IMG/VR virus record: IMGVR_UViG_3300012324_000001
DNA length: 14,834 nucleotides
Source of the DNA: a virus
Reading direction: 5' to 3' (one strand)
Under the pieces are notes generated by a model. That model did not search any database. It was not told where the DNA came from and was given only the letters and a program-made list of their open reading frames with translations. A program made the translations under genes and the position numbers. Shown here piece after piece: positions 2,118 through 14,834 of the stretch (positions are counted from its first letter, which is position 1; each line of letters opens with the position of its first letter).

Positions 2118-2636
2118 ATGGATGACATGACCGCCCCCACGATGAGTCTCCAAGATATCGCTGAACGTTATGAGAGTGCTCAGTGTGTGAAGTATGGCCG
2201 TCCTACTGATTGGGATGTTGAGGGCGCGGGCTCATGGTGGGGTCTCATGCCCTCGAGGCCGCCCCGCTACGTAACTCAGCTCATGGCGGCTGCTCTATGC
2301 GAGGATTGCCCGTTGCTGAGTATGTGTGCCTCTGACGCGCTCAGGGAGCGCCCTACTGGCGTCATACGGGCGGGCCTACCCGTTACGAGGGGTGACAGGC
2401 CGCCATCATGGCAGGAGTCTATCTGGCGCGCCGTAGCGGCCGGAGGGGGCCTCAGGCGCTCTATCGCTGGACTCTCTGGTGATTGGGACCCGGCCGCCGC
2501 CGTGGCATGGATTGACAGGTATCGCCCCTGGACCTCACGGGACCTAGCCCGGCTACCCCTGAGGGCCCGGCTCATAGGGGCCCGCCCTGAGGGTGCCCGG
2601 GGGTCCCGCGGGGCCCGGGGTAGGGGGCGAGCCTAG
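2118..2636 (+). CDS. WhiB-like (Wbl) Fe-S cluster transcription factor with an Arg/Gly-rich C-terminal tail. A more likely start is ATG 2127 (spacing 6 from RBS AAAGGATGG).
   Basis: Cys pattern C23...C61-x2-C64-x5-C70 (ALCEDCPLLSMCASDAL) followed by GVIRAG, matching the WhiB C-x2-C-x5-C plus GVWGG turn. Ends in ARGSRGARGRGRA. Confidence 0.6.
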   Translation: MDDMTAPTMSLQDIAERYESAQCVKYGRPTDWDVEGAGSWWGLMPSRPPRYVTQLMAAALCEDCPLLSMCASDALRERPTGVIRAGLPVTRGDRPPSWQESIWRAVAAGGGLRRSIAGLSGDWDPAAAVAWIDRYRPWTSRDLARLPLRARLIGARPEGARGSRGARGRGRA

Positions 2637-2905
2637 TGGCTGAGGGGTGGAGCGGACGTCGCGCTCAGCGACTGGTTAAAGCTACGCTCGCTCGCTATGG
2701 AGATGTGTGTCATCTATGCGGTCGACGCGGAGCAACATCAGCGGACCACATCATTCCTCGAGCTCATGGCGGCGATGACTCGCTAGATAACTTGCGTCCT
2801 GCTCATGTATCGTGTAATAGCTCGAGAGGTAAGATGAGTTTGGATGAATGGAGAGCAAAACATCCGCTGAAAGTCAACCGAGTCGCGCCAAGTAGAAAGT
2901 GGTAA
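2636..2905 (+). CDS. HNH endonuclease (89 aa), terminase-associated type.
   Basis: CHLCG...ADHIIPRAHGGDDSLDNLRPAHVSCNSSRG carries the HNH His/Asn motif and zinc ligands. GTG start overlaps the upstream stop. Lies immediately upstream of the putative cos site and terminase genes. Confidence 0.8.
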   Translation: MAEGWSGRRAQRLVKATLARYGDVCHLCGRRGATSADHIIPRAHGGDDSLDNLRPAHVSCNSSRGKMSLDEWRAKHPLKVNRVAPSRKW

Positions 2906-3064: not shown

Positions 3065-3388
3065 ATGAGTGAAGCACTATTCAACATTGAGCGCCCTAAG
3101 GGGCGGCATGCTGCCATGCTCGAGACTGCTATCGAGGCCGCTCGAGAGTCTAGCCTCATTGAGGCGGTAGACGAGGGCCTGATATCCATTGCTCGAGCCA
3201 ACGCGCTCGCCCTGGACGAAGCGGAGGCCTCCCCCAAGCCGTACTATCCGATTGCTCAACTAACGGGACCCTATCGGGAAGTGCTCGAGGCCCTGCAAAT
3301 GACCCCTGAAACTCGAGAGGCTAAGGCAAATGACGAACTCACCGTCGCTCTGCGAGAGCTATCCACGCCCGCGGTTCGGAACGCCTAG
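3065..3388 (+). CDS. Putative terminase small subunit (107 aa, helical, acidic).
   Basis: Position directly upstream of TerL and downstream of HNH/cos; small size. No diagnostic motif, so the call is positional. Confidence 0.4.
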   Translation: MSEALFNIERPKGRHAAMLETAIEAARESSLIEAVDEGLISIARANALALDEAEASPKPYYPIAQLTGPYREVLEALQMTPETREAKANDELTVALRELSTPAVRNA

Positions 3389-5017: not shown

Positions 5018-6079
5018 ATGGGAATTTTTAGCCGTATCCGAAACGCCCTCAACGCCCCGGCGCTCTATCACCCGAACGCGATAGCGAGCCCGCTCTCATC
5101 CGGTGATATCCTCGCCCCGGTATTCGCTGGACTGGACCTCCCCGCCCTGGATGGAGCCGTAACCCGCGATATGGCTATGGCCGTGCCCGCGCTCGCTCGA
5201 GCTCGTAGCCTCATATGTTCAACTATCGCCGGTGTCCCGCTCGTATCCGTCGATGACGATGGAGACGATGACGGCCGGACGCCGGATTACATTAAGTCAA
5301 CGCTGGGAGATGTACCGCCGTATCACCGCATGCTCTGGACGGTAGACGATCTATTCTTTTACGGGTGGTCATTGTGGGCGGTAGAGCGCGATAGCCGCGG
5401 CCGCGTCCTGGACGCCGCCCGCGTACCGTATGAGATGTGGTCGATGGATAGTGAGGGGAACGTCCTGGTCGATGGCGAGCCCGCCCGCGCTGAGGATGTG
5501 TGCCTCATCCCCGGTATCTCTGAGGGTATCCTCACGACCGGCCGCGCCACTATCGCTCAGGCTCATCAGCTACTACGCGCGGCCGCCCGCGCCGCCGAAA
5601 ATCCAGCCGCTCAGGTGGAACTACATCAAACTAATGAGGCCCCGATGACAGAAGAGGATGTGGAATTTCTCATCTCTAAGTGGGCTCGAGCTCGAGCGGG
5701 TGAAAACGGGGGAGTTGCTTTCACGTCCGCTGGTATTGAGGTTAAAGAGCATGGGGCCTCGAGTGAGCACCTACTCATTGAGGGACGTAACGCGGCCGCC
5801 GTCGATATCGCCCGTCATGCTAATCTGCCCGCTACGATGGTCGACGCCACGCTATCGGGCTCGAGTCTCTCATACCAGAACACCGCCGCGAGGATGAGTG
5901 AGCTCGTAACTTTTGGCCTCTCGCCACTAATGAAAGCCGTAGCCGCCCGGCTCTCGCAAAATGACATGAGCCCGGACGGCATTCGCCTATCGTTCGATAT
6001 GGATAGGACCTTTGAGGACCTATCCCGCGTCTATTCAGCCACATCTCAGGAGGATGAACTCAATGACACTAGTAACTGA
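5018..6079 (+). CDS. Portal protein (353 aa, short HK97-family-like portal).
   Basis: Position after TerL. N-terminal region ARARSLICSTIAGVPLV...GWSLWAVERDSRG resembles the conserved portal N-terminal helix and turn. No other portal candidate in the genome. Confidence 0.6.
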   Translation: MGIFSRIRNALNAPALYHPNAIASPLSSGDILAPVFAGLDLPALDGAVTRDMAMAVPALARARSLICSTIAGVPLVSVDDDGDDDGRTPDYIKSTLGDVPPYHRMLWTVDDLFFYGWSLWAVERDSRGRVLDAARVPYEMWSMDSEGNVLVDGEPARAEDVCLIPGISEGILTTGRATIAQAHQLLRAAARAAENPAAQVELHQTNEAPMTEEDVEFLISKWARARAGENGGVAFTSAGIEVKEHGASSEHLLIEGRNAAAVDIARHANLPATMVDATLSGSSLSYQNTAARMSELVTFGLSPLMKAVAARLSQNDMSPDGIRLSFDMDRTFEDLSRVYSATSQEDELNDTSN

Positions 6080-6866
6080 TTGGTCTCAGCGATTCAATTT
6101 CGGAGGCCCGCGCCCCACTGCAAAGATTCGGAATATCTTTATCCACACGACCGAGAACCCCTTTACATCTACAGCTGAGGGTGTCGCAAACTATCAAATC
6201 TCGAGTGAGTCGGGCTCATACCACGTGCTAGTGGACCAAAGCAAGCGACTCATCTGTAATACGGATGATTGGCTCACCTGGTCTACGGGTAACTATGGAA
6301 ATGACATTGGCCTACATCTTTCGTTTGTGGCCTACGCCGCCTCAACTCGAGCTCAGTGGCTCGAGGAAGAGAAACAGCACGGGACCATTAGCCGCGCCGC
6401 GGAACAGGTCGCCGCCTGGTCCAAAAAGCACAACATCCCGCTAGTGGAAGTCGATGGTAACGGCCTACTCGCCGGACGCCGTGGCGTCTCTACCCACAAC
6501 GCGGCCCGCGTGTGGGGAAATACGGACCATACGGACCCGGGCTCAGGGTTCCCGATGGACGTCCTGCTCTCTAAGGCCGCCCGCCCTAACTCCACCCCTC
6601 AACCTAAGAAAGTAGATGACATGTTTACCGATAAAGACCGCGACCTGCTCGAGCGCGTACACCATGAGCTAACCCACAAGTTTGACAGCCGAGCCGACCT
6701 GGACGCCAAAAAGCCTAACCCGTTCAAAGATACGGCTATTGGCTACGCACTCGAGGCAGATAAAAAGCTCGAGCTCGCCCCCGGCTCTAAGCTCGCTGAG
6801 GCATTCGACCACCTAGCCGCGGAACTAGCGGAAGTAAAATCGCTACTGACTAAGCGGGTGGACTAA
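6063..6866 (+). CDS. N-acetylmuramoyl-L-alanine amidase (Amidase_2/PGRP) endolysin with a C-terminal helical extension. The track start 6012 is replaced by ATG 6063.
   Basis: Amidase_2 signature residues: IHTTE (Zn His), SYHVLVD, NDIGLHLSF, and THNAARVWGNTDHTDPGSGFP (His...H.DP). RBS AGGAGGA 6048-6054 lies 8 nt before ATG 6063. Confidence 0.8.
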   Translation: MTLVTDWSQRFNFGGPRPTAKIRNIFIHTTENPFTSTAEGVANYQISSESGSYHVLVDQSKRLICNTDDWLTWSTGNYGNDIGLHLSFVAYAASTRAQWLEEEKQHGTISRAAEQVAAWSKKHNIPLVEVDGNGLLAGRRGVSTHNAARVWGNTDHTDPGSGFPMDVLLSKAARPNSTPQPKKVDDMFTDKDRDLLERVHHELTHKFDSRADLDAKKPNPFKDTAIGYALEADKKLELAPGSKLAEAFDHLAAELAEVKSLLTKRVD

Positions 6867-7018
6867 TGACCGCGCTCGCTATCGTGATGTGCCTAGTGTG
6901 CTCTATCGCCGGAGGCCTCGCCGCCGGGGCGATAGGGGCCCTCATCGTGCTAGATTCGATGGCTCGCCATGCGCCCGGTCATGCTAGAGCGCATGAGCAC
7001 CGAGCCACCACCACCTAG
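6866..7018 (+). CDS. Holin-like small membrane protein (50 aa): MTALAIVMCLVCSIAGGLAAGAIGALIVLDSMARHAPGHARAHEHRATTT. Not in the track.
   Basis: ATG overlaps the amidase stop (TAATG). ~30 hydrophobic residues followed by a charged His/Arg C-terminal tail, the classic holin layout. Confidence 0.35.
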   Translation: MTALAIVMCLVCSIAGGLAAGAIGALIVLDSMARHAPGHARAHEHRATTT

Positions 7019-7289
7019 CCAAGTCATCCACCCGTGGCGCGCCGTACTGCGAACGACTCTCACCGCGCTAATAGCATTCCTGCCACTGCTACCGCAAATA
7101 GCGGACGCTATCAACATTGACGAAATTCCAGAAGTCGCCAAGTTTCTCGCTATCACGGTAGCGGTACAGCGAGTACTCACATTGCCTGGTGTTGAGAATT
7201 GGCTGAAACAGTACGCCCCCTGGCTCGCCGCTGAGGGGTATACATACCACGGGAACCATAGAGCTGAGGATAGACAGAATGAAGATTAA
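6969..7289 (+). CDS. Membrane protein with two predicted TM segments and an acidic C-terminus; holin candidate or holin partner. In-frame alternative starts at 6981 and 6993.
   Basis: Hydrophobic stretches LTALIAFLPLLPQIA and VAKFLAITVAVQRVLTL. Lies directly downstream of the endolysin. The 5' end overlaps the 6866..7018 ORF in another frame. Confidence 0.45.
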   Translation: MRPVMLERMSTEPPPPSQVIHPWRAVLRTTLTALIAFLPLLPQIADAINIDEIPEVAKFLAITVAVQRVLTLPGVENWLKQYAPWLAAEGYTYHGNHRAEDRQNED

Positions 7290-8886
7290 AGGATTAATTA
7301 TCCCCTACGGAGCGCCCGGCCGGACTAATGGCGGTATTCTCACCATTAACGCCGGGGCGGTCACTGTTCCCGCGGACATTGGCCGTGTGAAGCTACTCAG
7401 GGACCACTCCACTGAGCCGGGCTGGTCGCCGGTCGGGAAAGCCGTCGATATGCAAGAGACAAAAGACGGACTCGAGATGACCTTTGAGATAGGCGACACT
7501 GAGGACGGCCGGACCGCAATAGCAGATATTGAGTCCGGTATCCGAGACGCCCTCAGCGTGGAAATTATCGACACTGAGGTAAAGGGAAATGAGCTCACTA
7601 GCGGTATCCTTACCGCCGTGGCCCTGGTCCCGATTCCCGCGTTTGAGGAGGCCCGTATTTCTGAGATTACCGCCGCTCAACACGTAGAAGAGGATGAGCG
7701 GGTGAGCGTAGTATTCGCCCCCGATTCCCCGGCCCTAGCCGCCTCCCAAGATACTCAAGTTACCCGCCCCGAAAAGGAAGAGGAAAGCATGACCGAGAAG
7801 CGCACCATTCGTAAGACTATCGAGGATGAGAAGGACAACATCCCCGCCTCGAGCGAGTCTAACGAGACCTCTAGCGATGAAGAGGATGAAGAGGATGAAG
7901 AGGATGAAGAGGATGAGCGTAAGGAGTCTCAGGTGAACGCCGCCCGTGCCCCCCGCGGCCTCATGGTGAAGCAGAACGCGCCGCTGACTTTCTCTCAGGC
8001 AGTTGAGACTATTCAGCGCATGCGGACCGGACAGGCTGGCGCGGAAATGACCGCCGCCCTGGCCGATATCACCCGCTCTGCTAACCCGGCCGTATCCGCC
8101 CCTCAGTGGTTGGGCCAAATGTGGGACGGCGCGGACTACGAGCGAGAGATCGTCCCCACGTTCACTCAGGCCACCCTCACCCGCATGAAAGCCGTTGGCT
8201 GGCGTTTCACCCAAAAGCCTGAGGTCGATGACTACGCGGGCGACAAGGCAGAAATTCCTACTAACACCGTCGCTACGGAGCCGGTAGAGGTCAACGCCAA
8301 GCGACTCGCCGCCGGACACGATATCGACCGCGCATATTTTGACTTTAACGAGCGCGAGTTTCTCGAGGCATTCTTCAACGCCCGCGTTGTGGACTACAAG
8401 TTAAAGACCGATGAGCGCGCCGCCAAGTTCGCCTTTGATTCCGCCAAGGCCGCCCCGGCCGTAACTACCGGAACTGAGCCGGACCTGCTGCACGCCGCGG
8501 CCCGCGCCCGCCTCATCATCAAGCAACGTACGCGAGTTGAGCCAACGACCTACCTGGTTAACCCGGCCTCTATGTTCGGTCTATTCCAGATTACCCAGCT
8601 GGACAACCCGGCCTATCTGGACCTGCTAGGTGTACGCCCTGAGCGTTTCCTCGCTACGGACCTCGTACCTGAGGGGCAGGTAGTAGCCTACGCTAAGCAA
8701 GCGATGACCTGGTTCGAGCTACCGGGCTCGCCTATTCGTGTCGACGCTGAACGCATTGACCACGGAGGTAAGGATTCCGGTATTTTCGGATACTACGCCG
8801 CCATTCTGAATAACTCTCAGGGTGTTGTGTCTATCCCGTTCAATACCACCCCGGCCGCCCCGGTCGCTGACAACAACGAGGCCTAA
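7279..8886 (+). CDS. Prohead (capsid maturation) protease fused to major capsid protein (535 aa), joined by an acidic scaffold-like linker.
   Basis: N-terminal ~130 aa match the HK97 gp4-type prohead protease family (Peptidase U35/S78): VKLLRDHSTEPGWSPVGKAV...ETKDGLEMTFEIGDTEDGRTAIADIESGIRDALSVEI, with catalytic His in RDHS and Ser in ALSVEI. An acidic linker SSDEEDEEDEEDEEDE follows. The C-terminal ~330 aa is the only capsid-sized gene between portal and connector and has MCP-like segments (TYLVNPASMFGL..., GQVVAYAKQAMTWFELPGSPIRV). Confidence 0.7.
   Translation: MKIKGLIIPYGAPGRTNGGILTINAGAVTVPADIGRVKLLRDHSTEPGWSPVGKAVDMQETKDGLEMTFEIGDTEDGRTAIADIESGIRDALSVEIIDTEVKGNELTSGILTAVALVPIPAFEEARISEITAAQHVEEDERVSVVFAPDSPALAASQDTQVTRPEKEEESMTEKRTIRKTIEDEKDNIPASSESNETSSDEEDEEDEEDEEDERKESQVNAARAPRGLMVKQNAPLTFSQAVETIQRMRTGQAGAEMTAALADITRSANPAVSAPQWLGQMWDGADYEREIVPTFTQATLTRMKAVGWRFTQKPEVDDYAGDKAEIPTNTVATEPVEVNAKRLAAGHDIDRAYFDFNEREFLEAFFNARVVDYKLKTDERAAKFAFDSAKAAPAVTTGTEPDLLHAAARARLIIKQRTRVEPTTYLVNPASMFGLFQITQLDNPAYLDLLGVRPERFLATDLVPEGQVVAYAKQAMTWFELPGSPIRVDAERIDHGGKDSGIFGYYAAILNNSQGVVSIPFNTTPAAPVADNNEA
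7876..7917 (+). repeat. Tandem 9-bp repeat (GATGAAGAG) x ~4.7 encoding the (DEE)n acidic linker inside the protease-capsid gene.
   Basis: Direct reading: gatgaagag repeated at 7876, 7885, 7894, 7903, then gatgag. Confidence 0.85.
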
Positions 8887-8888
8887 TC

Positions 8889-9200
8889 ATGTCTGACATC
8901 ATCGCCGCCGATGAGGTATTGCACGCCATGCAACTAGGGGAGCGCGAGCGCCCTGAGGTTGAGGATGTGGTATCCGCCGTCAACGCTCTGATTAAGTCCT
9001 ATAAAGGGGACCGTGAAGAGTGGCCCGCCTATTGGCGGCAGGGCGCGAAGATGTTAGCTCAGCGAGTCTACCGTCGCCGGGATTCCCCGGCCGGTGTTGA
9101 GGCTATGGGCGAGCTAGGCCCGGTCTACGTCTCTCGTAACGACCCGGACCTAGCACAGTTGCTCGAGTTAGGCCGATATGCTAAGCCGGTGGTTGGATGA
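8889..9200 (+). CDS. Head-tail connector / adaptor protein (gp6-like), 103 aa.
   Basis: Position immediately after the capsid gene; size and C-terminal LAQLLELGRYAKPVV resemble gp6-like connector proteins. Stop overlaps the next ATG (ATGA). Confidence 0.5.
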   Translation: MSDIIAADEVLHAMQLGERERPEVEDVVSAVNALIKSYKGDREEWPAYWRQGAKMLAQRVYRRRDSPAGVEAMGELGPVYVSRNDPDLAQLLELGRYAKPVVG

Positions 9201-9550
9201 TTAAAGACAAACTAGACCATATGGTCACAGTGACAAAAGACGCCGGTATATCAGCTACCCTAGACCCGCCGAAAATTAACCCGCCCGGGGTCTGGATATG
9301 CGCCCGCCGCCTGGACACCGAGACTCTGCCGGGATTCTTTACCACAGTTGCGGATGTTTACCTAATCACCCGTGATACGGGAGTTATCCCCGCCCTCGAG
9401 ACTCTAGACGGCATGCTCGAGAAACTCATCGACGCCATCCACAACGATGACGCCCTCGAGATTGTATCCAGTGCCCTGGATGAGTCCGTAACCCTACCGC
9501 ATGGCGCGGCACCATTGCCCGCCTATCGACTATCAGTAAACATTTCTTAG
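9197..9550 (+). CDS. Head-tail joining protein (head closure / tail terminator candidate), 117 aa.
   Basis: Position and size only; translationally coupled to the connector gene. Confidence 0.35.
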   Translation: MIKDKLDHMVTVTKDAGISATLDPPKINPPGVWICARRLDTETLPGFFTTVADVYLITRDTGVIPALETLDGMLEKLIDAIHNDDALEIVSSALDESVTLPHGAAPLPAYRLSVNIS

Positions 9551-9560
9551 GAGAGTAATC

Positions 9561-9983
9561 ATGGTTGCACGCGCCCCACGCGCTCAAAAGCTAGGCCCTG
9601 GCGAGCTGAAAATCGGAGGTGATGAGCTAGATATCTCATGCCAGATGACTGAGGTAAAAATCACCTGGGATATCGACGAAGATGACGCCGTACCCACGCT
9701 ATGCGGTGGCACTATGCCGGGCGATACCACCTATCAGGCTAAGCTCGAGGGCGAGGCATATCAGGACCTCACTAAGGGCGGGATTCTAGAGTACACCTGG
9801 AAAAACAGGGGCGAAATCAAGTCTGTAACATTTACCCCCACCACTGGCACCGCAAAAATTACCGGCTCTGTAGTAATTCAGCCGCTCGAGCTGGGTGGCG
9901 AGGTAGGCAAAAAGAATACCTCTGATATTGAGTTCAGTTTCGCAGGGGACCCGGTATTCACCCCTAACGAGCCTGCTAAGTAG
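9561..9983 (+). CDS. Putative major tail (tube) protein, 140 aa, beta-rich.
   Basis: RBS AGGAGA before ATG 9561. Gly/Thr-rich beta-strand-like composition (GTAKITGSVVIQPLELGGEVGK...SDIEFSFAGDP) typical of small siphovirus tube proteins. No other tube candidate upstream of the chaperone/TMP genes. Confidence 0.4.
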   Translation: MVARAPRAQKLGPGELKIGGDELDISCQMTEVKITWDIDEDDAVPTLCGGTMPGDTTYQAKLEGEAYQDLTKGGILEYTWKNRGEIKSVTFTPTTGTAKITGSVVIQPLELGGEVGKKNTSDIEFSFAGDPVFTPNEPAK

Positions 9984-9988
9984 AGCTC

Positions 9989-10384
9989 ATGGTTTATCAG
10001 GGATTGAAAATTGAGGGCGGGCGGCAATTACGCCGCACCCTCAGGGACGCCGGTAGCGACCTACAAGACCTGAAAGAAGCTAACGCCGCCGCGGCCGGTA
10101 TCGTATCGGGTAAAGCAAAAAGCTGGGCCCCTACGAGGTCCGGTCGCCTCATGGCGTCGGTACGCTCATCCGGTACTAAGACGGCCGGTATCGTGAGGGC
10201 GGGTAACAACCGCAAATCAAAAAATGGCGTGCCCTACGCCGCGCCGATTCATTGGGGCTGGAAAGCACGTAATATCAAGGCTAACCCCTTTCTTTCCTAC
10301 TCAGCTCAGGCCACTGAGCCAACCTGGATTCGCCTATATGAGTCGCTCGTAAATAAAGCACTATCGAAAATCAAAGGAAAATAG
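9989..10384 (+). CDS. HK97 gp10-family protein (head-tail joining / tail completion), 131 aa.
   Basis: APTRSGRLMASVRSSG...AGIVRAGNN...VPYAAPIHWGW...ANPFL closely follows the HK97_gp10 family consensus (aPv.TG.Lr.Si....vG....YA..vefG....PFl). Confidence 0.55.
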   Translation: MVYQGLKIEGGRQLRRTLRDAGSDLQDLKEANAAAAGIVSGKAKSWAPTRSGRLMASVRSSGTKTAGIVRAGNNRKSKNGVPYAAPIHWGWKARNIKANPFLSYSAQATEPTWIRLYESLVNKALSKIKGK

Positions 10385-10388
10385 AAAT

Positions 10389-10661
10389 ATGTCTCTGAAA
10401 CTAGATGTAACGCTCGCTAATGGTGAACAGCATGAGGCGACCATCCTCAACCCTGATAGGGTTCGCTGGGATATGGCCGCTACTCGTAATGGATGGCCTA
10501 CGTTTGAAAAAGCGCCCTTTTTGGGAATGACGTATCTCGCATGGGCGAGCCTTAAGCGAGAGAATAAGTATTCCGGTACTTGGGATGAGTTCAAGGAAAC
10601 TGATTGCCTCGAGGTAGAGTCCCGCGATGAAGAGCTCGAGGATGACGCCACGGGAAAATAA
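10389..10661 (+). CDS. Tail assembly chaperone (G-like), 90 aa, acidic C-terminus.
   Basis: Position immediately upstream of the tape measure. Acidic tail (ESRDEELEDDATGK). Ends in the slippery heptamer G_GGA_AAA abutting the stop codon. Confidence 0.55.
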   Translation: MSLKLDVTLANGEQHEATILNPDRVRWDMAATRNGWPTFEKAPFLGMTYLAWASLKRENKYSGTWDEFKETDCLEVESRDEELEDDATGK

Positions 10662-10804
10662 TTCCTGAGGGTACTCTCGCCCGTACCCTGATTGAGCTGA
10701 GTTACGCCTGGAAAATCAGCCCGGCCGAAGTGCTCGCCCTGGATGATGAAATTCAGGCAACGATGATAGATATCCTGAGGGAGGTTAGTAAGCAAAGTGG
10801 CTAG
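10389..10804 (+). CDS. Tail assembly chaperone G-T fusion made by programmed -1 ribosomal frameshift at 10652-10658. The -1 frame adds ~48 aa (GKIIPEGTLARTLIELSYAWKISPAEVLALDDEIQATMIDILREVSKQSG), stopping at TAG 10802-10804.
   Basis: X_XXY_YYZ heptamer G_GGA_AAA sits exactly at the 0-frame stop (10659-10661). The -1 frame stays open for 48 codons through the whole 135-nt 'intergenic' gap and stops overlapping the TMP GTG start (10797). This is the canonical G/G-T arrangement. Confidence 0.5.
10652..10658 (+). other. Slippery heptamer GGGAAAA (-1 PRF site) of the tail chaperone gene.
   Basis: Read directly from the sequence; see the G-T feature. Confidence 0.5.
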
Positions 10805-12728
10805 TAAGACTGCTATCCTCTCAGTCCGTATCATTTCGGACGCGAAAAAAGCGGTAGCCGGATTCAAGGAGGCCGCGGGCGGCCTGGACGGCCTCGAGCG
10901 CAAACTGAATAAGGTCCAACCGGCCGCTACCGTAGCCGCGGGCGCGGTCATCGCTATGGGTAAACAAGCGATTGATAGCGCCTCTAAGCTCCAACAGTCT
11001 ACCGGCGCGGTTGAGGCTGTATTTAAAAATCAGTCGACCGCGATTAAGAAACTCGCCGCGGACGCGGCCGGGGCGGTAGGTCTATCCGCTAATCAGTATC
11101 AAGAGTTCGCCTCAGTCATTGGCTCTCAGCTTAAAAATCTAGGAACCGCTCAAGAGGACCTCGTACCCACTACGGATAAACTCATCACAATGGGCGCGGA
11201 CCTCGCCTCAATGTTCGGAGGTACTACCGCGGACGCCGTAGAAGCCCTCTCTGCTGCTTTCCGTGGTGAATATGATCCAGTTGAGCGCTACGGCATTTCG
11301 ATTAAGAAGAGCGACATTAACGCCCGGCTCGCCGCTAAGGGCCTGGACGGCCTCGAGGGTGAGGCGCTGAAAACCGCGGAAACTCAAGAGTTGCTCGCTA
11401 TGCTGACTGAACAATCAGCGGACGCTATGGGCAATTTCCAGCGCGAGACAGACACCGCCGCGGGCTCAGCGCAAATCGCCGCCGCTAATTGGGAAAACGC
11501 TAAGGCCTCGCTAGGTGAGGCATTCCTGCCTATTGTCACTCAGGCCGCGGAAAAGCTCGCTGGCATGTCTAGCGCCGTGAAAGAGCACCCCCAGTTATTT
11601 ACCGCAATGGCCGGGGCAATTGTGGGAGCCGCTGCCGCTATCAACCTCGCGCTACTCGCTATTAAGGGCTATCGCGCTGTTACCACTATCGTTACTGGTA
11701 TTAAGACCGCATGGGCGGGCCTGAACACGTCGATGGCCGTCATCCGAGGCCAGATGATTCTAGGTAACGCCGCGGCCGCCGCCCGGTCCGCTACCGCGTG
11801 GGTCGCCGCCGCCGCCCGCGCCGCGGCCGCATGGGTCGCTAACGTCGCCCGTATGGTGGGAGCGTGGGCTATGGCCGCCGCTCAGTCTGCCATCCACGGG
11901 GCTCGAGCCGGTATCCAGTGGGCACTAGGAGCCGCCCGCGCCGCTACCGCATGGGTAGTTAACCTCGCTCGTATCGGTATTGCCTGGACTCTCACAACGG
12001 CCCGCGTAGTAGCTCAGCTCGCCATCCAGCGCGGCGCTATGATGGCCGCCCGAGCCGCCACCCTTATGATGGCGGCAGGACAGGCGATTCTAAACGCCGT
12101 CATGTCTGCTAACCCTATTGCCATCGTGGTACTCGCCATCGCCGCCCTAGCGGCCGGGCTCGTAGTCGCCTATAACAAGAGCGAGACTTTCCGAAACGCG
12201 GTACAGGCCGCGGGTCGATTCGCTAAGGCTGCATTCGACCTCGCTAAAAACGCGGTAATGGGAGTCATTCACAAAATTGGCGAGGTCATTGGCCGCGTAG
12301 GTGGTGTTGGTGGTGCATTCCGTACCGCCATGAGTATCGCTAAGGGCGCGGTCGATATCCTCACATGGCCGCTACGTCAACTCATTGGTTTCATCGAAAA
12401 CGTCATTAGCGCGATTAGCCGTATCCGGTTCCCGTCGCCGCCTGGATGGATGAGAAAGCTCACGGGCGGCGCGGTTCAATTCTCAGCCGCTGGCGGGGCC
12501 ATGCTTACCGCCGCGGGGCCCGCTACGTTTAGCCCTATTGGTGGCGTGCTCTCAGGCGGTAGCTCGCCCGCCCCGGTCAATGTGGATAACAGGGTGATTA
12601 TTAATGTGGACGGGTCCGGTATTGTCGACCCCCGCGCCGTTGCTGAGCAAATCAGGGACGCGCTTAAATCGGATGGCCGCGGGCGCGGAGGCCGCCTCGC
12701 CGCCGGGGGAGGTGCTCAATGGCTGTAA
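10797..12728 (+). CDS. Tape measure protein (643 aa).
   Basis: Position after G/G-T. Long Ala-rich helical sequence with internal repeats (ATAWVAAAARAAAAWVANVARMVGAW...ATAWVVNLARIGIAWT), a hydrophobic membrane-like core (IAIVVLAIAALAAGLVVAY) and a Gly-rich C-terminus. Confidence 0.85.
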   Translation: MASKTAILSVRIISDAKKAVAGFKEAAGGLDGLERKLNKVQPAATVAAGAVIAMGKQAIDSASKLQQSTGAVEAVFKNQSTAIKKLAADAAGAVGLSANQYQEFASVIGSQLKNLGTAQEDLVPTTDKLITMGADLASMFGGTTADAVEALSAAFRGEYDPVERYGISIKKSDINARLAAKGLDGLEGEALKTAETQELLAMLTEQSADAMGNFQRETDTAAGSAQIAAANWENAKASLGEAFLPIVTQAAEKLAGMSSAVKEHPQLFTAMAGAIVGAAAAINLALLAIKGYRAVTTIVTGIKTAWAGLNTSMAVIRGQMILGNAAAAARSATAWVAAAARAAAAWVANVARMVGAWAMAAAQSAIHGARAGIQWALGAARAATAWVVNLARIGIAWTLTTARVVAQLAIQRGAMMAARAATLMMAAGQAILNAVMSANPIAIVVLAIAALAAGLVVAYNKSETFRNAVQAAGRFAKAAFDLAKNAVMGVIHKIGEVIGRVGGVGGAFRTAMSIAKGAVDILTWPLRQLIGFIENVISAISRIRFPSPPGWMRKLTGGAVQFSAAGGAMLTAAGPATFSPIGGVLSGGSSPAPVNVDNRVIINVDGSGIVDPRAVAEQIRDALKSDGRGRGGRLAAGGGAQWL

Positions 12729-14250: not shown

Positions 14251-14834
14251 GTGCCTCAGTACACGCAAAATTATAAAATTCCCTACCCCGTCGATGGCGA
14301 CCCTATTTATCAGGGCGCGGCTCAGATGAAAGCACTTGCTGAAAAGGTGGACGCCACGATGATAGGCGTCTCAGGAAAGCCCGGCCCTCAGGGTGACACG
14401 GGCCCCGCGGGCCCTCAGGGCACCCGCGGCCCGGCCGGACCCCCGGGCCCGGCTGGTCCTGAGGGCCCTCGAGGCGCTACGGGTGCTAAGGGTGACACCG
14501 GCGACCGGGGCCCCGCGGGCGAGACTGGACCCGTGGGCCCTGCTGGACCTACCGGCCCTCGAGGCGCTACGGGTGCTCAGGGCGAGCCCGGCCCCGCGGG
14601 CCCTAAGGGTGAGGCCGGAACGGGTTTCACGCTCAAGGGCTCAAAGAGTAATAAATCTGAGCTACCCAACAACGCTAAGGCTGGAGACGCCTATCTCGTA
14701 GCGGGCAATGTAATGGTGTGGTCTGGTAGCGCGTGGGAAAACGTGGGGCAGATTCAAGGCCCCGCGGGTCCTGAGGGCCCTCGAGGCGCTACAGGTGAGC
14801 AAGGCCCCACGGGTGCTCGAGGCGCTACGGGTGC
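14251..14834 (+). CDS. Collagen-like minor tail protein / tail fibre, N-terminal part. GTG start; runs off the window end and continues at nt 128. Full product ~406 aa with two Gly-X-Y blocks.
   Basis: RBS AGGAGA 14241-14246, GTG 14251, in-frame stop TGA upstream at 14230-14232. 28 Gly-X-Y triplets (14374-14625) then a linker ([46 protein letters not shown]) that runs into the second collagen block at window nt 51. The frame was checked across the 127-nt overlap: 14713 is in frame with 14251. Confidence 0.7.
   Translation, partial: MPQYTQNYKIPYPVDGDPIYQGAAQMKALAEKVDATMIGVSGKPGPQGDTGPAGPQGTRGPAGPPGPAGPEGPRGATGAKGDTGDRGPAGETGPVGPAGPTGPRGATGAQGEPGPAGPKGEAGTGFTLKGSKSNKSELPNNAKAGDAYLVAGNVMVWSGSAWENVGQIQGPAGPEGPRGATGEQGPTGARGATG
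14708..14834. repeat. Exact 127-bp terminal duplication (identical to nt 1-127), marking a circular or terminally redundant contig.
   Basis: Base-by-base identity of 14708-14834 with 1-127, ending exactly at the window end. The matching sequence is unique and non-repetitive (ATGTAATGGTGTGGTCTGGTAGCGCGTGGGAAAACGTGGGGCAG...). Confidence 0.9.

Follow-up and report, generated by a model that had tools for sequence, protein, structure and literature searches.

The head gene analysed in this study encodes a head-maturation protease fused to a major capsid protein, and this fusion is real. The best explanation of our data as a whole, which we consider very likely, is a siphovirus with a complete 14.7-kb genome and a single head-assembly gene made up of three parts, namely a protease (residues 1–133), an acidic linker (residues 134–220) and a capsid protein with a predicted HK97 fold (residues ~229–535). 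In addition, the nucleotide sequence suggests, with a chance that we put slightly above even, that translation of the gene begins at two sites, ATG 7279 and ATG 7789, the second of which lies within the linker.

The window, that is the whole stretch of DNA analysed here (14,834 nucleotides), carries an exact terminal overlap of 127 bp and therefore represents a complete circular contig of 14,707 bp. A megablast search with the whole window against 50,697 phage records gave no nucleotide-level match. The host probably belongs to the genus Corynebacterium, which is absent among the phage isolates with the fusion. Using PHROG and Pfam scans, the other sizeable ORFs could be assigned to TerS, TerL, portal, endolysin, adaptor, tail tube, tape measure and minor tail proteins, a collagen-like fibre and an HNH nuclease. 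None of these ORFs in the complete genome was identified as a further capsid, scaffold or protease gene, which is in agreement with a preliminary description of this DNA that had noted the lack of a separate capsid or scaffold gene. The fusion ORF is the sole capsid candidate and is located between the portal and adaptor genes (Table 1). The membrane-protein ORF immediately upstream shows 41% identity (E=2e-19) to residues 9–93 of the annotated Orf7 of phage RRH1.

Table 1. Location of the fusion gene, its predicted parts and its neighbours in the window
Feature	Position	Strand	Basis or remark
Portal gene	5018..6079	+	PF04860, E=5e-21
106-aa membrane-protein ORF (phrog_4316)	6969..7289	+	Its last 11 nt overlap the start of the fusion
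Fusion ORF: prohead protease, acidic linker and major capsid protein	7279..8886	+	ORF list, translation
Predicted protease domain, residues 1–133, assemblin/HK97 gp4-like fold	7279..7677	+	AF2, Foldseek, TIGR01543
Codon of His43, candidate catalytic histidine	7405..7407	+	In LLRDHS
Codon of Ser93, candidate catalytic serine	7555..7557	+	In DALSVEI
Linker, residues 134–220, disordered, acidic, hypervariable among relatives	7678..7938	+	pLDDT, alignment, composition
Putative internal ribosome-binding site AAAAGGAAGAGGAAAGC with the in-frame Met171 ATG	7772..7791	+	SD duplex energy, conservation
Perfect 9-bp tandem repeat GATGAAGAG, 4.6 copies, encoding (DEE)n	7876..7916	+	Tandem Repeats Finder, 100% matches
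Junction motif AARAPRGL, residues 221–228, linker–capsid boundary	7939..7962	+	Family alignment
Predicted HK97-fold major capsid protein domain, residues 229–535	7963..8883	+	Foldseek
Head–tail adaptor gene	8889..9200	+	phrog_5938, E=7e-29

The fusion ORF starts with an ATG and encodes 535 amino acids plus a stop codon, giving a protein of 58.4 kDa with a pI of 4.6. Almost the entire protein (residues 2–527) is covered by phrog_2263 'major head protein' (E=3.6e-92, profile positions 40–549 of 551). In tblastn searches the protein matched 86 phage records, 35 of them at a coverage of at least 80%, and the best matches carry the annotation 'major capsid and protease fusion protein'; the identity is 50.7% to the EricDab protein and 37.5% over 97% of the length to that of Schiebs. 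Furthermore, an ORF of this length and architecture is present without interruption in 303 homologues from many samples, and of 151 sequences that we examined (the query and 150 representatives of 50%-identity clusters), 142 contain both domains; the ORF is for these reasons not an assembly artefact. We found nothing in support of the idea that a frameshift or a lost stop codon, arising in sequencing or assembly, merged two genes, and since the same unbroken ORF also occurs in isolated, annotated phages and contigs at 99% identity carry the identical sequence, this explanation has practically no chance of being correct. The ORF, the two predicted folds and the full-length phrog_2263 match all agree with the proposal in the preliminary description that protease and capsid protein are encoded by a single fused gene. 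The same description took the fusion to be unusual, a view that does not hold given the annotated homologues and two papers in which protease–capsid fusions are described as a common or typical feature of small-genome siphoviruses (PMC7302621, PMC5513430). The arrangement is already documented in small-genome phages and is not new; what the gene adds to this known class of minimal siphoviruses is an uncultured, probably Corynebacterium-infecting lineage, which helps annotation, as neither domain is detected by Pfam here.

Both sequence and model support the predicted assignment of the N-terminal domain to the HK97-type prohead serine proteases (MEROPS S78). The AF2 model of residues 1–142 had a pLDDT of 91.9, and Foldseek matched the protease model in the PDB to herpesvirus assemblins and T4 gp21 (the matches include 4v07, 1at3, 2wpo, 1o6e and 5jbl) with a probability of 0.9–1.0 and a TMq of 0.42–0.58, and in BFVD to prohead proteases with E-values down to 3e-14 and a TMq of 0.8. 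A profile search of PDB sequences gave no match. TIGR01543 aligned to residues 36–131 with E=5.3e-7, although its score of 29.9 bits is below the curated cut-off of 59, and PF04586 (Peptidase_S78) reached 15.1 bits (E=0.025), below its cut-off of 21, on the N-terminal domain alone and did not match the full-length fusion protein. The homologue from phage Mariposa, which is related to the fusion protein with a tblastn E-value of 3e-34, passes PF04586 with 29.9 bits. His43, Ser93 and the residues flanking them are invariant across 49 homologues (52–97% identical), and in hhalign and hmmsearch alignments, the scores of which are weak, the two residues fall on His65 and Ser114 of HK97 gp4, which we take to be its catalytic residues. 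The scores under the curated thresholds and the short domain (133 aa compared with 225 aa in gp4) would also fit a degenerate, inactive protease fold that functions as a scaffold only, with maturation performed by a host protease or not taking place. We regard this as very improbable in view of the invariance of His43, Ser93 and their neighbours in all 49 homologues, the alignment of the two residues with the catalytic pair of gp4 and a fold modelled at a pLDDT of 92.

For the C-terminal part, an HK97 capsid fold, which is characterised by an N-arm, an E-loop, a P domain containing a spine helix and an A domain, is supported by the structural model. Foldseek comparison with the PDB returned HK97 gp5 (1ohg, 3e8k, 2fs3) and the capsid proteins of phiXacJX1, D3, SaPI1 and Muddy with E-values of ~1e-9, a probability of 1.0, a TMt of 0.5–0.6 and 260–290 aligned columns; this part was modelled with moderate confidence (pLDDT 60–90). 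On the sequence level, PF25209 (Phage_capsid_4) did not match the fusion protein, the relatives Schiebs, P0016 and P0111 pass it with 29–34 bits against a cut-off of 27, and no meaningful alignment between the family profile and HK97 gp5 was obtained with hhalign. The gp4-type protease and the capsid-like domain named in the preliminary description are both borne out by these results. It had also proposed structure prediction and HMM searches as checks. The former returned a confident assemblin-like fold for the N-terminal part and an HK97 fold for the C-terminal part, whereas the latter were mixed, with a TIGR01543 alignment in favour of the protease on the one hand, and TIGR01543 and PF04586 scores below the cut-offs and no PF25209 match on the other.

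The linker between the two domains contains 32 aspartate and glutamate residues among its 87 residues and has a pI of 4.05. The model has a pLDDT below 50 across residues 134–249, and within the family the alignment stretch corresponding to residues 125–232 ranges from 39 to 124 aa. The 9-bp tandem repeat, the origin of the (DEE)n stretch as had been pointed out before (its end is at 7916 rather than 7917), encodes S-DEE-DEE-DEE-DEE-DE, residues 199–213. It has also been suggested that this repeat could expand or contract the linker. Linker length is variable across the family, but the copy number is the same in three independent relatives with 97–99% identity (L023, L032 and L024), and a relative with 93% identity (L025) has a repeat of equal length with synonymous drift; among close relatives there is no sign of rapid change. 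Other lineages of the family have their own short tandem repeats in the linker. At the linker–capsid boundary, A222 and P225 of the junction motif are invariant and G227 and L228 nearly so, in a region that is otherwise unalignable. By analogy with HK97 (K103/S104) and Nocturne116 (R242/S243; PMC13595954), maturation cleavage probably takes place just upstream of this motif, near R214/K215, and the mature N-terminus is predicted to lie close to residues 215–221.

Within the linker, the ATG at 7789 (Met171) is preceded by the Shine–Dalgarno (SD)-like sequence AAGGAAGAGGAA. The calculated SD duplex energy is −7.0 kcal/mol compared with −5.6 kcal/mol for the annotated start, and among the 11 in-frame ATGs of the fusion ORF, that of Met171 has the best SD score. 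The predicted product from this start has 365 aa and a mass of 40.4 kDa and consists of the linker and the capsid domain without the protease. A GTG at 7933 (Val219) behind AAGGAG was considered as a further start and rejected; it is not conserved, and relatives have GTA or GTC at this position or lack the SD sequence.

The simplest reading of the ORF is that the 535-aa polyprotein is its sole product, that each subunit brings its own protease and that the linker Met is incidental or a peptide-level feature. We judge this to be a real possibility, at somewhat below an even chance. SD-like strings can arise from acidic codons alone (GAG-GAx, AAG-GAx), as expected in a linker of this composition, and 9% of the linker positions in the window score as well as Met171. 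The presence of a Met in the linker is by itself uninformative, because among the representatives its frequency is no higher there than in the rest of the protein and it is absent in 27 of 104 representative clusters; the distance from the linker Met to the capsid domain also differs between clades. Furthermore, one lineage (P0117/L041) has a short linker without any start codon and the EricDab linker has only a weak start, and assembly from the fusion protein alone must therefore be viable. A replacement of Met by Val is moreover mild at the protein level. On the other hand, an SD sequence paired with a start recurs across lineages sharing less than 30% identity, and an equivalent SD sequence with an ATG or GTG is kept in most divergent relatives, lactococcal phages included, which argues against an incidental Met. 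In the 16 lineages for which DNA was available, the SD context of the linker start codon is one of the best within its linker (Fisher p ~4e-4 to 9e-4). In the lactococcal phages the amino acids encoded upstream vary (KE, EE or GE), whereas the nucleotides all spell the SD core. In all six cases in which Val takes the place of the Met, it is encoded by GTG, although GTC is about as frequent as GTG for Val in these genes; five of the six had been predicted before the DNA was seen, and the joint chance calculated from the genes' own Val codon usage is 0.034. Also at odds with a sole polyprotein product is the observation that a conserved module, MTPEQIARLAELR or CxxCG..H, often begins with the linker Met. 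An objection on steric grounds to one protease per subunit was dropped; according to our own estimate, with ~25 kDa per subunit roughly one third of the space inside a T=4 procapsid would be occupied, which is tight but feasible.

The SD sequence and ATG could also be the decaying relic of a separate capsid gene that was fused by loss of a stop codon and at which initiation has ceased. Adjacent but separate protease and capsid genes are the common arrangement, for example HK97 gp4/gp5, and the Met is located at a domain boundary. In a linker that is hypervariable in length and sequence, however, an unused signal should have vanished, and yet it is retained in phages as far apart as actinophages and lactococcal phages. 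We also found no close relative in which the two genes are unfused. About nine capsid-only representatives of ~250–400 aa (P0157, P0183, P0192, P0215, P0227, P0232, P0255 and P0257 are examples) had been candidates for unfused relatives starting at the linker Met, but the five that were traced are all truncation artefacts, as they start 16–33 nt from a contig end. We consider a relic improbable.

Because the linker SD sequence and start are kept in most relatives and the start switches from ATG to GTG, it seems probable from the sequences that protease-free capsid precursors are made in addition to the full-length protein. The earlier view that the protease is built into every subunit precursor is probably too strong given the conserved SD sequence and start at Met171. 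More generally, we lean towards the idea that the protease–capsid 'fusion' genes of small-genome siphoviruses are nested gene pairs, in which the bulk of the capsid precursor would come from the internal start. Taken jointly, and with the same slight preference, this would apply to the Corynebacterium-type phage described here and its Gordonia, Rhodococcus and Arthrobacter relatives, and, as an independent case, to the lactococcal Q54, Nocturne116 and c2 groups. No statement of this reading was found in the literature on protease–capsid fusions. Likewise, the control of the protease:capsid ratio and the delivery of the protease into the procapsid are not addressed in the literature found on these fusions, nothing relevant was found there on their proteomics, and a cryo-EM preprint on actinophage capsids (10.1101/2022.09.09.507160) makes no mention of protease, fusion or fused proteins.

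We propose the following model for head assembly. ATG 7279 would give rise to a 58-kDa protease-bearing subunit and ATG 7789 to a 40-kDa protease-free precursor. With two starts the enzyme would be present on only a fraction of the subunits, and the two ribosome-binding sites would determine the protease:capsid ratio, similar to lambda C/Nu3 or herpesvirus UL26/UL26.5. The capsid domains would assemble on the portal into a small procapsid, for which we predict a T number of 3 or 4 from the genome size on the basis of the literature, with the N-terminal parts pointing inward and the acidic linker occupying the place of a scaffold or delta domain. As one half of a nested pair, the full-length product would account for a minority of the capsid subunits, each with a protease tethered inside. 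The tethered proteases would then cut the linkers just upstream of AARAPRGL, probably after R214/K215, and the fragments would exit while the mature capsid protein of ~35 kDa stays, as in HK97 and Nocturne116. If this is true, one ORF with two ribosome-binding sites solves both the packaging of the enzyme and its stoichiometry, and the logic of the nested lambda and herpesvirus genes extends to the capsid protein itself. Such genes would then need to be annotated with two products, and models of procapsid composition would change for T=3 and T=4 tailed phages.

The fusion proteins of several actinophages, namely the Gordonia phages EricDab, Schiebs and Emperor, the Rhodococcus phage RRH1 and the Arthrobacter cluster AN phages Mariposa and Decurro, have the same domain order, and the small-genome actinophages with the fusion fall into the same size class (14–17 kb). 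In Schiebs and RRH1 the gene order is also the same, with TerS, TerL, portal, lysin, small membrane ORFs, fusion and adaptor. The linker, on the other hand, is long and acidic with a perfect (DEE)n stretch here, whereas it is Gly-, Pro/Ala- or Ala-rich in EricDab, RRH1 and Mariposa.

Nocturne116 ORF18 and Q54 orf21 likewise combine a protease, a central region and an HK97-fold capsid protein in one ORF. An SD sequence and ATG follow the protease domain in Nocturne116, Q54, GE1 and one c2-like phage; in Nocturne116 and Q54 the SD-like motif and ATG come directly after this domain, as they do here. Cryo-EM work on Nocturne116 ORF18 places the mature capsid N-terminus at residue 243, after the central region (PMC13595954). 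There was no detectable homology between the family profile and Nocturne116 ORF18 using hhalign, and the likeness between AxPxGL here and PAPTGIL at the mature N-terminus of Nocturne116 is therefore an analogy by eye only. The central region is a predicted helical scaffold of ~100 aa in Nocturne116 but mostly disordered and acidic here, and Nocturne116 has a separate gene for a vertex (penton) protein, whereas none was seen here.

A named family of protease–capsid fusions is listed in NCBIfam as NF045541 'prohead protease/major capsid protein fusion protein' (scaf_prot_MCP2). Relatives of the fusion protein match the protease part of this model weakly (E 8e-10 to 8e-6, far below the 525-bit cut-off) and the fusion protein itself does not match it; on this sequence comparison the protein belongs to a different fusion lineage.

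With HK97 gp4 and gp5 the fusion protein shares the protease family, in which the His/Ser pair is aligned, though weakly, and the predicted capsid fold. In HK97 the N-terminal part of the capsid protein fulfils the scaffold function and is cut off by the protease, and by analogy the same layout may apply here. The HK97 protease is a separate 225-aa protein, which enters the prohead via its own C-terminal tail. In the fusion protein this tail appears to be replaced by the covalent link to the capsid domain, and the protease domain comprises only 133 aa.

Finally, in lambda C/Nu3, herpesvirus UL26/UL26.5 and Haloferax virus HFTV1 gp17/gp17.5 an in-frame start is found after the protease domain, a feature that we infer for the gene described here; for HFTV1 the nested products have been shown by ribosome profiling (bioRxiv 10.64898/2026.09.13.751334). 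In these nested systems a long protease-bearing and a short protease-free product share their C-terminus, which would also hold here. However, in lambda, herpesvirus and HFTV1 the C-terminal portion common to both products is a scaffold distinct from the capsid protein, whereas here it would be the capsid protein itself.

The preliminary description had read ORF 7279–8886 as a prohead protease fused to a major capsid protein, and this domain assignment proved right, the protease being recognized by its predicted fold and by TIGR01543 and the capsid protein by its predicted fold. The ORF itself is real according to the ORF list and its translation: it lies on the plus strand, starts with ATG and comprises 535 codons and a stop codon. 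Its product contains the histidine and serine motifs first noticed, with His43 within LLRDHS and Ser93 within DALSVEI; both residues are invariant in 49 homologues. Alignments to HK97 gp4, weak but in agreement with each other, place them on His65 and Ser114, the catalytic residues of that protease. An AlphaFold model of residues 1–142, made with 49 homologues, has a mean pLDDT of 91.9. Its best herpesvirus match in the PDB is pseudorabies pUL26N (4v07, E=5e-4), with further PDB matches to the HSV-2, HCMV, EBV, KSHV and VZV assemblins and to T4 gp21 (5jbl); among predicted viral structures it matches entries named prohead protease, Proheadase_HK97 or COG3740 (E down to 3e-14, TM-score 0.8). 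The full protein matches TIGR01543 (HK97 family prohead protease) with E=5.3e-7 and 29.9 bits, below the curated cut-off of 59. Pfam Peptidase_S78 was reached by the isolated N-domain only and below threshold (E=0.025), and therefore the Pfam search with the whole fusion protein gave no match. The C-terminal part of the full-length model, which is of moderate confidence, has HK97 gp5 and numerous phage capsid proteins among its matches (E ~1e-9, probability 1.0) and is thus assigned the HK97 fold.

The window ends in an exact 127 bp repeat (1–127 and 14708–14834), which shows it to be a complete circular contig of 14,707 unique bases (G+C content 58 %). This genome is among the smallest of siphoviruses (that of Rhodococcus phage RRH1 has 14,270 bp), and dozens of related contigs of 14.7–15 kb are present in public metagenomes. 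When every ORF of notable size was scanned against Pfam and PHROG, the genes came out in the order collagen-like tail fibre, HNH nuclease, TerS, TerL, portal, Amidase_2 endolysin, two small membrane ORFs, fusion gene, adaptor, tail tube, tape measure and minor tail protein. These scans of the complete genome detected no further gene for a capsid, scaffold or protease protein, and thus no separate capsid gene elsewhere speaks against the preliminary description. The lysis genes occupy the same odd position in phages Schiebs, RRH1 and EricDab. The TTG start listed for the endolysin, which gives a 68 nt overlap with the portal gene, may be wrong.

Features of the window and its relatives, with the sequence 5′ of candidate linker starts
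Feature	Record	Position	Sequence or remark
Collagen-like (Gly-X-Y) tail-fibre gene	Window	14393–14834 into 1–764	Across contig junction; tail-fibre PHROGs, E=2e-30; rich in 9-, 18- and 63-bp tandem repeats (TRF: 73–308, 14399–14494, 14780–14834)
HNH endonuclease gene immediately 5′ of small terminase gene	Window	2636–2905 and 3065–3388	
Lysis genes, between portal and capsid genes	Window	6012–7289	
Amidase_2 endolysin	Window	6012–6866	
50-aa membrane ORF	Window	6866–7018	
106-aa membrane ORF	Window	6969–7289	
Tandem repeat within tape-measure gene	Window	11771–11851	33 bp, 2.1–2.3 copies, 78–83 % matches
Fusion relative	L018 (Corynebacterium mastitidis DSM 44356)	8365–9843	
Fusion relative	L019 (C. 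oculi NML 130210)	10001–11488	
Linker start	RRH1		ccGGAAGGAAccccagccATG
Linker start	Schiebs		ccGAGGAGaacaccgacATG
Linker start	Mariposa		AGGAAAGAGGcagtaATG
Linker start	L007		AAAAGGAAaataacactATG
Linker start	L010		GAGATAGGAGAttcttccATG
Linker start	Nocturne116	Met145	AAAAGGAAA
Linker start	Q54	Met144	AGAGGAAA
Linker start	GE1	Met137	GAAGAGGAAGAA
Linker start	c2-like phage		AAAGGAGAA

The fusion protein belongs to a large family. It matches phrog_2263 ('major head protein') over residues 2–527 (E=3.6e-92), and 86 phage records were matched by tblastn, the best being those of Gordonia phages EricDab (50.7 %) and Schiebs (37.5 % over 97 % length), RRH1 and Arthrobacter cluster AN; most top matches carry the label 'major capsid and protease fusion protein' or one very like it. 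Schiebs and RRH1 also have the same gene order, and no sequenced phage matched the window at the nucleotide level. A protein database contained 303 homologues, mostly from 14.7–15 kb contigs, and when 1.84 billion cluster representatives were searched with a profile, 2039 clusters were returned (E<=1e-3); both domains are present in 142 of the 151 sequences examined (the query and 150 representatives). Relatives of ~60 % identity lie inside the genomes of Corynebacterium mastitidis and C. oculi, which makes Corynebacterium the likely host genus and suggests that some family members are integrated or carried there.

The arrangement is already known, and the gene described here adds one more member. 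A fused protease-capsid gene has been described in Arthrobacter clusters AM, AU and AN and in RRH1 (Klyczek et al. 2017, PMC5513430; see also Jacobs-Sera et al.), and T=3 or T=4 capsids have been predicted for genomes of RRH1 size (Luque and co-workers, PMC7762592). Cryo-EM of Lactococcus phage Nocturne116 places the N-terminus of the mature capsid protein at residue 243 of ORF18, which encodes protease, scaffold and capsid (PMC13595954). For Pseudomonas phage PAJU2, autocatalytic cleavage of a capsid polyprotein had been proposed earlier, according to the citation in PMC8306868.

Residues 134–249 are predicted to be disordered in the full-length model. The family alignment shows a conserved AR(V/I)xxxTAA at the end of the protease domain and a conserved AAR(A/V)P(R/S)GL at the start of the capsid part; the stretch including both motifs (query 125–232) varies from 39 to 124 aa and is unalignable between them. 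The linker is rich in D, E and T in nearly all Corynebacterium-type lineages and Gly-, Pro/Ala- or Ala-rich in EricDab, RRH1 and Mariposa. Residues 139–156 (7693–7746, ERVSVVFAPDSPALAAS) form a short segment that is conserved in the window clade and has recognizable counterparts, AVVFSHDDCHLTAA and AVAFSAKQCQITAS, in clades further away; AlphaFold gave the segment no confident structure. Tandem Repeats Finder located a perfect 9-bp repeat, GATGAAGAG, in 4.6 copies at 7876–7916, encoding the (DEE)n tract of residues 199–213. It had been suggested that this repeat could resize the linker. Its copy number is identical in three independent contigs of 97–99 % protein identity, and a 93 % relative has an unchanged repeat length with synonymous drift, so that there is no sign of rapid change among these four; relatives of 75–88 % identity have acidic tracts of other sequence, with lengths that vary by a few residues only. 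What remains of the suggestion is long-term change: other lineages have short repeats of their own, such as (SEDEDS)3 and (ETPAE)n, which makes slippage plausible as a long-term source of linker variation. The acidic tract, which lies downstream of the linker Met in the window clade and upstream of it in the L007 clade, can best be regarded as a flexible, charged spacer.

The preliminary description also held that the protease is built into every capsid subunit precursor. This is unsupported and probably wrong, as the linker contains a conserved candidate internal start. Met171 (ATG at 7789) stands behind ccgAAAAGGAAGAGGAAAGC, with a computed pairing to the 16S 3′ end of −7.0 kcal/mol compared with −5.6 kcal/mol for the annotated start, and none of the other ten in-frame ATGs does better than −5.6 kcal/mol. 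Nearly every lineage with DNA examined has a single linker ATG with a Shine–Dalgarno (SD)-like motif 7–12 nt upstream. As acidic codons mimic SD motifs, each start was ranked among all in-frame positions within the same linker; most ranked in the best 2–17 %, and combining 16 lineages by Fisher's method, with a correction for linkers that hold several candidates, gave p = 4e-4 to 9e-4, which we regard as moderate evidence because the lineages are not fully independent. We further predicted GTG wherever relatives have Val for the linker Met. The homologue P0008, seen before the prediction was made, has GTG (GAGGAGGAtacccccGTG, −11.6 kcal/mol), and all five further Met-to-Val cases fetched later have GTG (joint chance 0.034, from each gene's own Val codon usage). 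The amino acids upstream vary (KE, EE, EG, GE, RKE), yet in every case the codons spell an SD core, which speaks for a signal at the RNA level and not for a peptide motif. The same arrangement of SD and start occurs in lactococcal fusions without detectable sequence similarity to the window protein.

There are exceptions: the 20-aa linker of lineage L041 has no possible internal start, the EricDab start is weak, and the linker Met is absent in 27 of 104 representative clusters, several of which have Val in the same context. Many distant relatives have a conserved module that begins with this Met and is either a helix (MTPEQIARLAELR) or a CxxCG..H motif. Zinc-ribbon-like motifs, for example MPCANCGQVHAAGVAC and MECSICGHTHAPDVTC, immediately follow the linker Met or Val in the L016 linker and in P0140, P0168, P0177, P0181 and P0187; the region after the protease thus holds different small modules by lineage. 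A second candidate, GTG Val219 (7918–7935), has a perfect AAGGAG 6 nt upstream and precedes the AARAPRGL junction by two residues; it is not conserved, as relatives have GTA or GTC or lack the SD, and is therefore probably incidental.

Capsid-only genes listed as 'complete' on L042–L046 (P0232, P0227, P0257, P0192, P0215) are not truly unfused. These five independent short metagenome contigs all start 16–33 nt upstream of the linker Met, and therefore the gene caller reported complete genes; they probably reflect selection among contigs that broke within the repetitive linker. In databases, such truncated entries can pass for unfused capsid genes. At the other end, the 106-aa membrane ORF shares 41 % identity (E=2e-19) with residues 9–93 of the annotated 661-aa RRH1 Orf7 (L021, 4439–6424), and EricDab gp9 (L001, 5522–7408) has a similar N-terminal transmembrane extension. 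In both phages the membrane protein and the protease-capsid ORF share one reading frame, and no stop codon separates them; this leaves two readings, starts annotated too far upstream or a third nested product.

Judging from the family, HK97 and Nocturne116, the capsid domains would build a procapsid with the N-terminal parts inside, and the tethered proteases would then cleave near the conserved junction, leaving a mature capsid protein of ~35 kDa. By analogy with HK97 Lys103 and Nocturne116 Arg242, our guess is that cleavage might occur after R214/K215. We lean slightly towards the view that translation would also start at Met171, giving a protease-free precursor of 365 aa and 40.4 kDa, in which case only some subunits would carry the enzyme. 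The same nested logic is found in lambda C/Nu3, herpesvirus UL26/UL26.5 and HFTV1 gp17/gp17.5; unlike in those systems, the shared C-terminal part of the pair proposed here would be the capsid protein itself.
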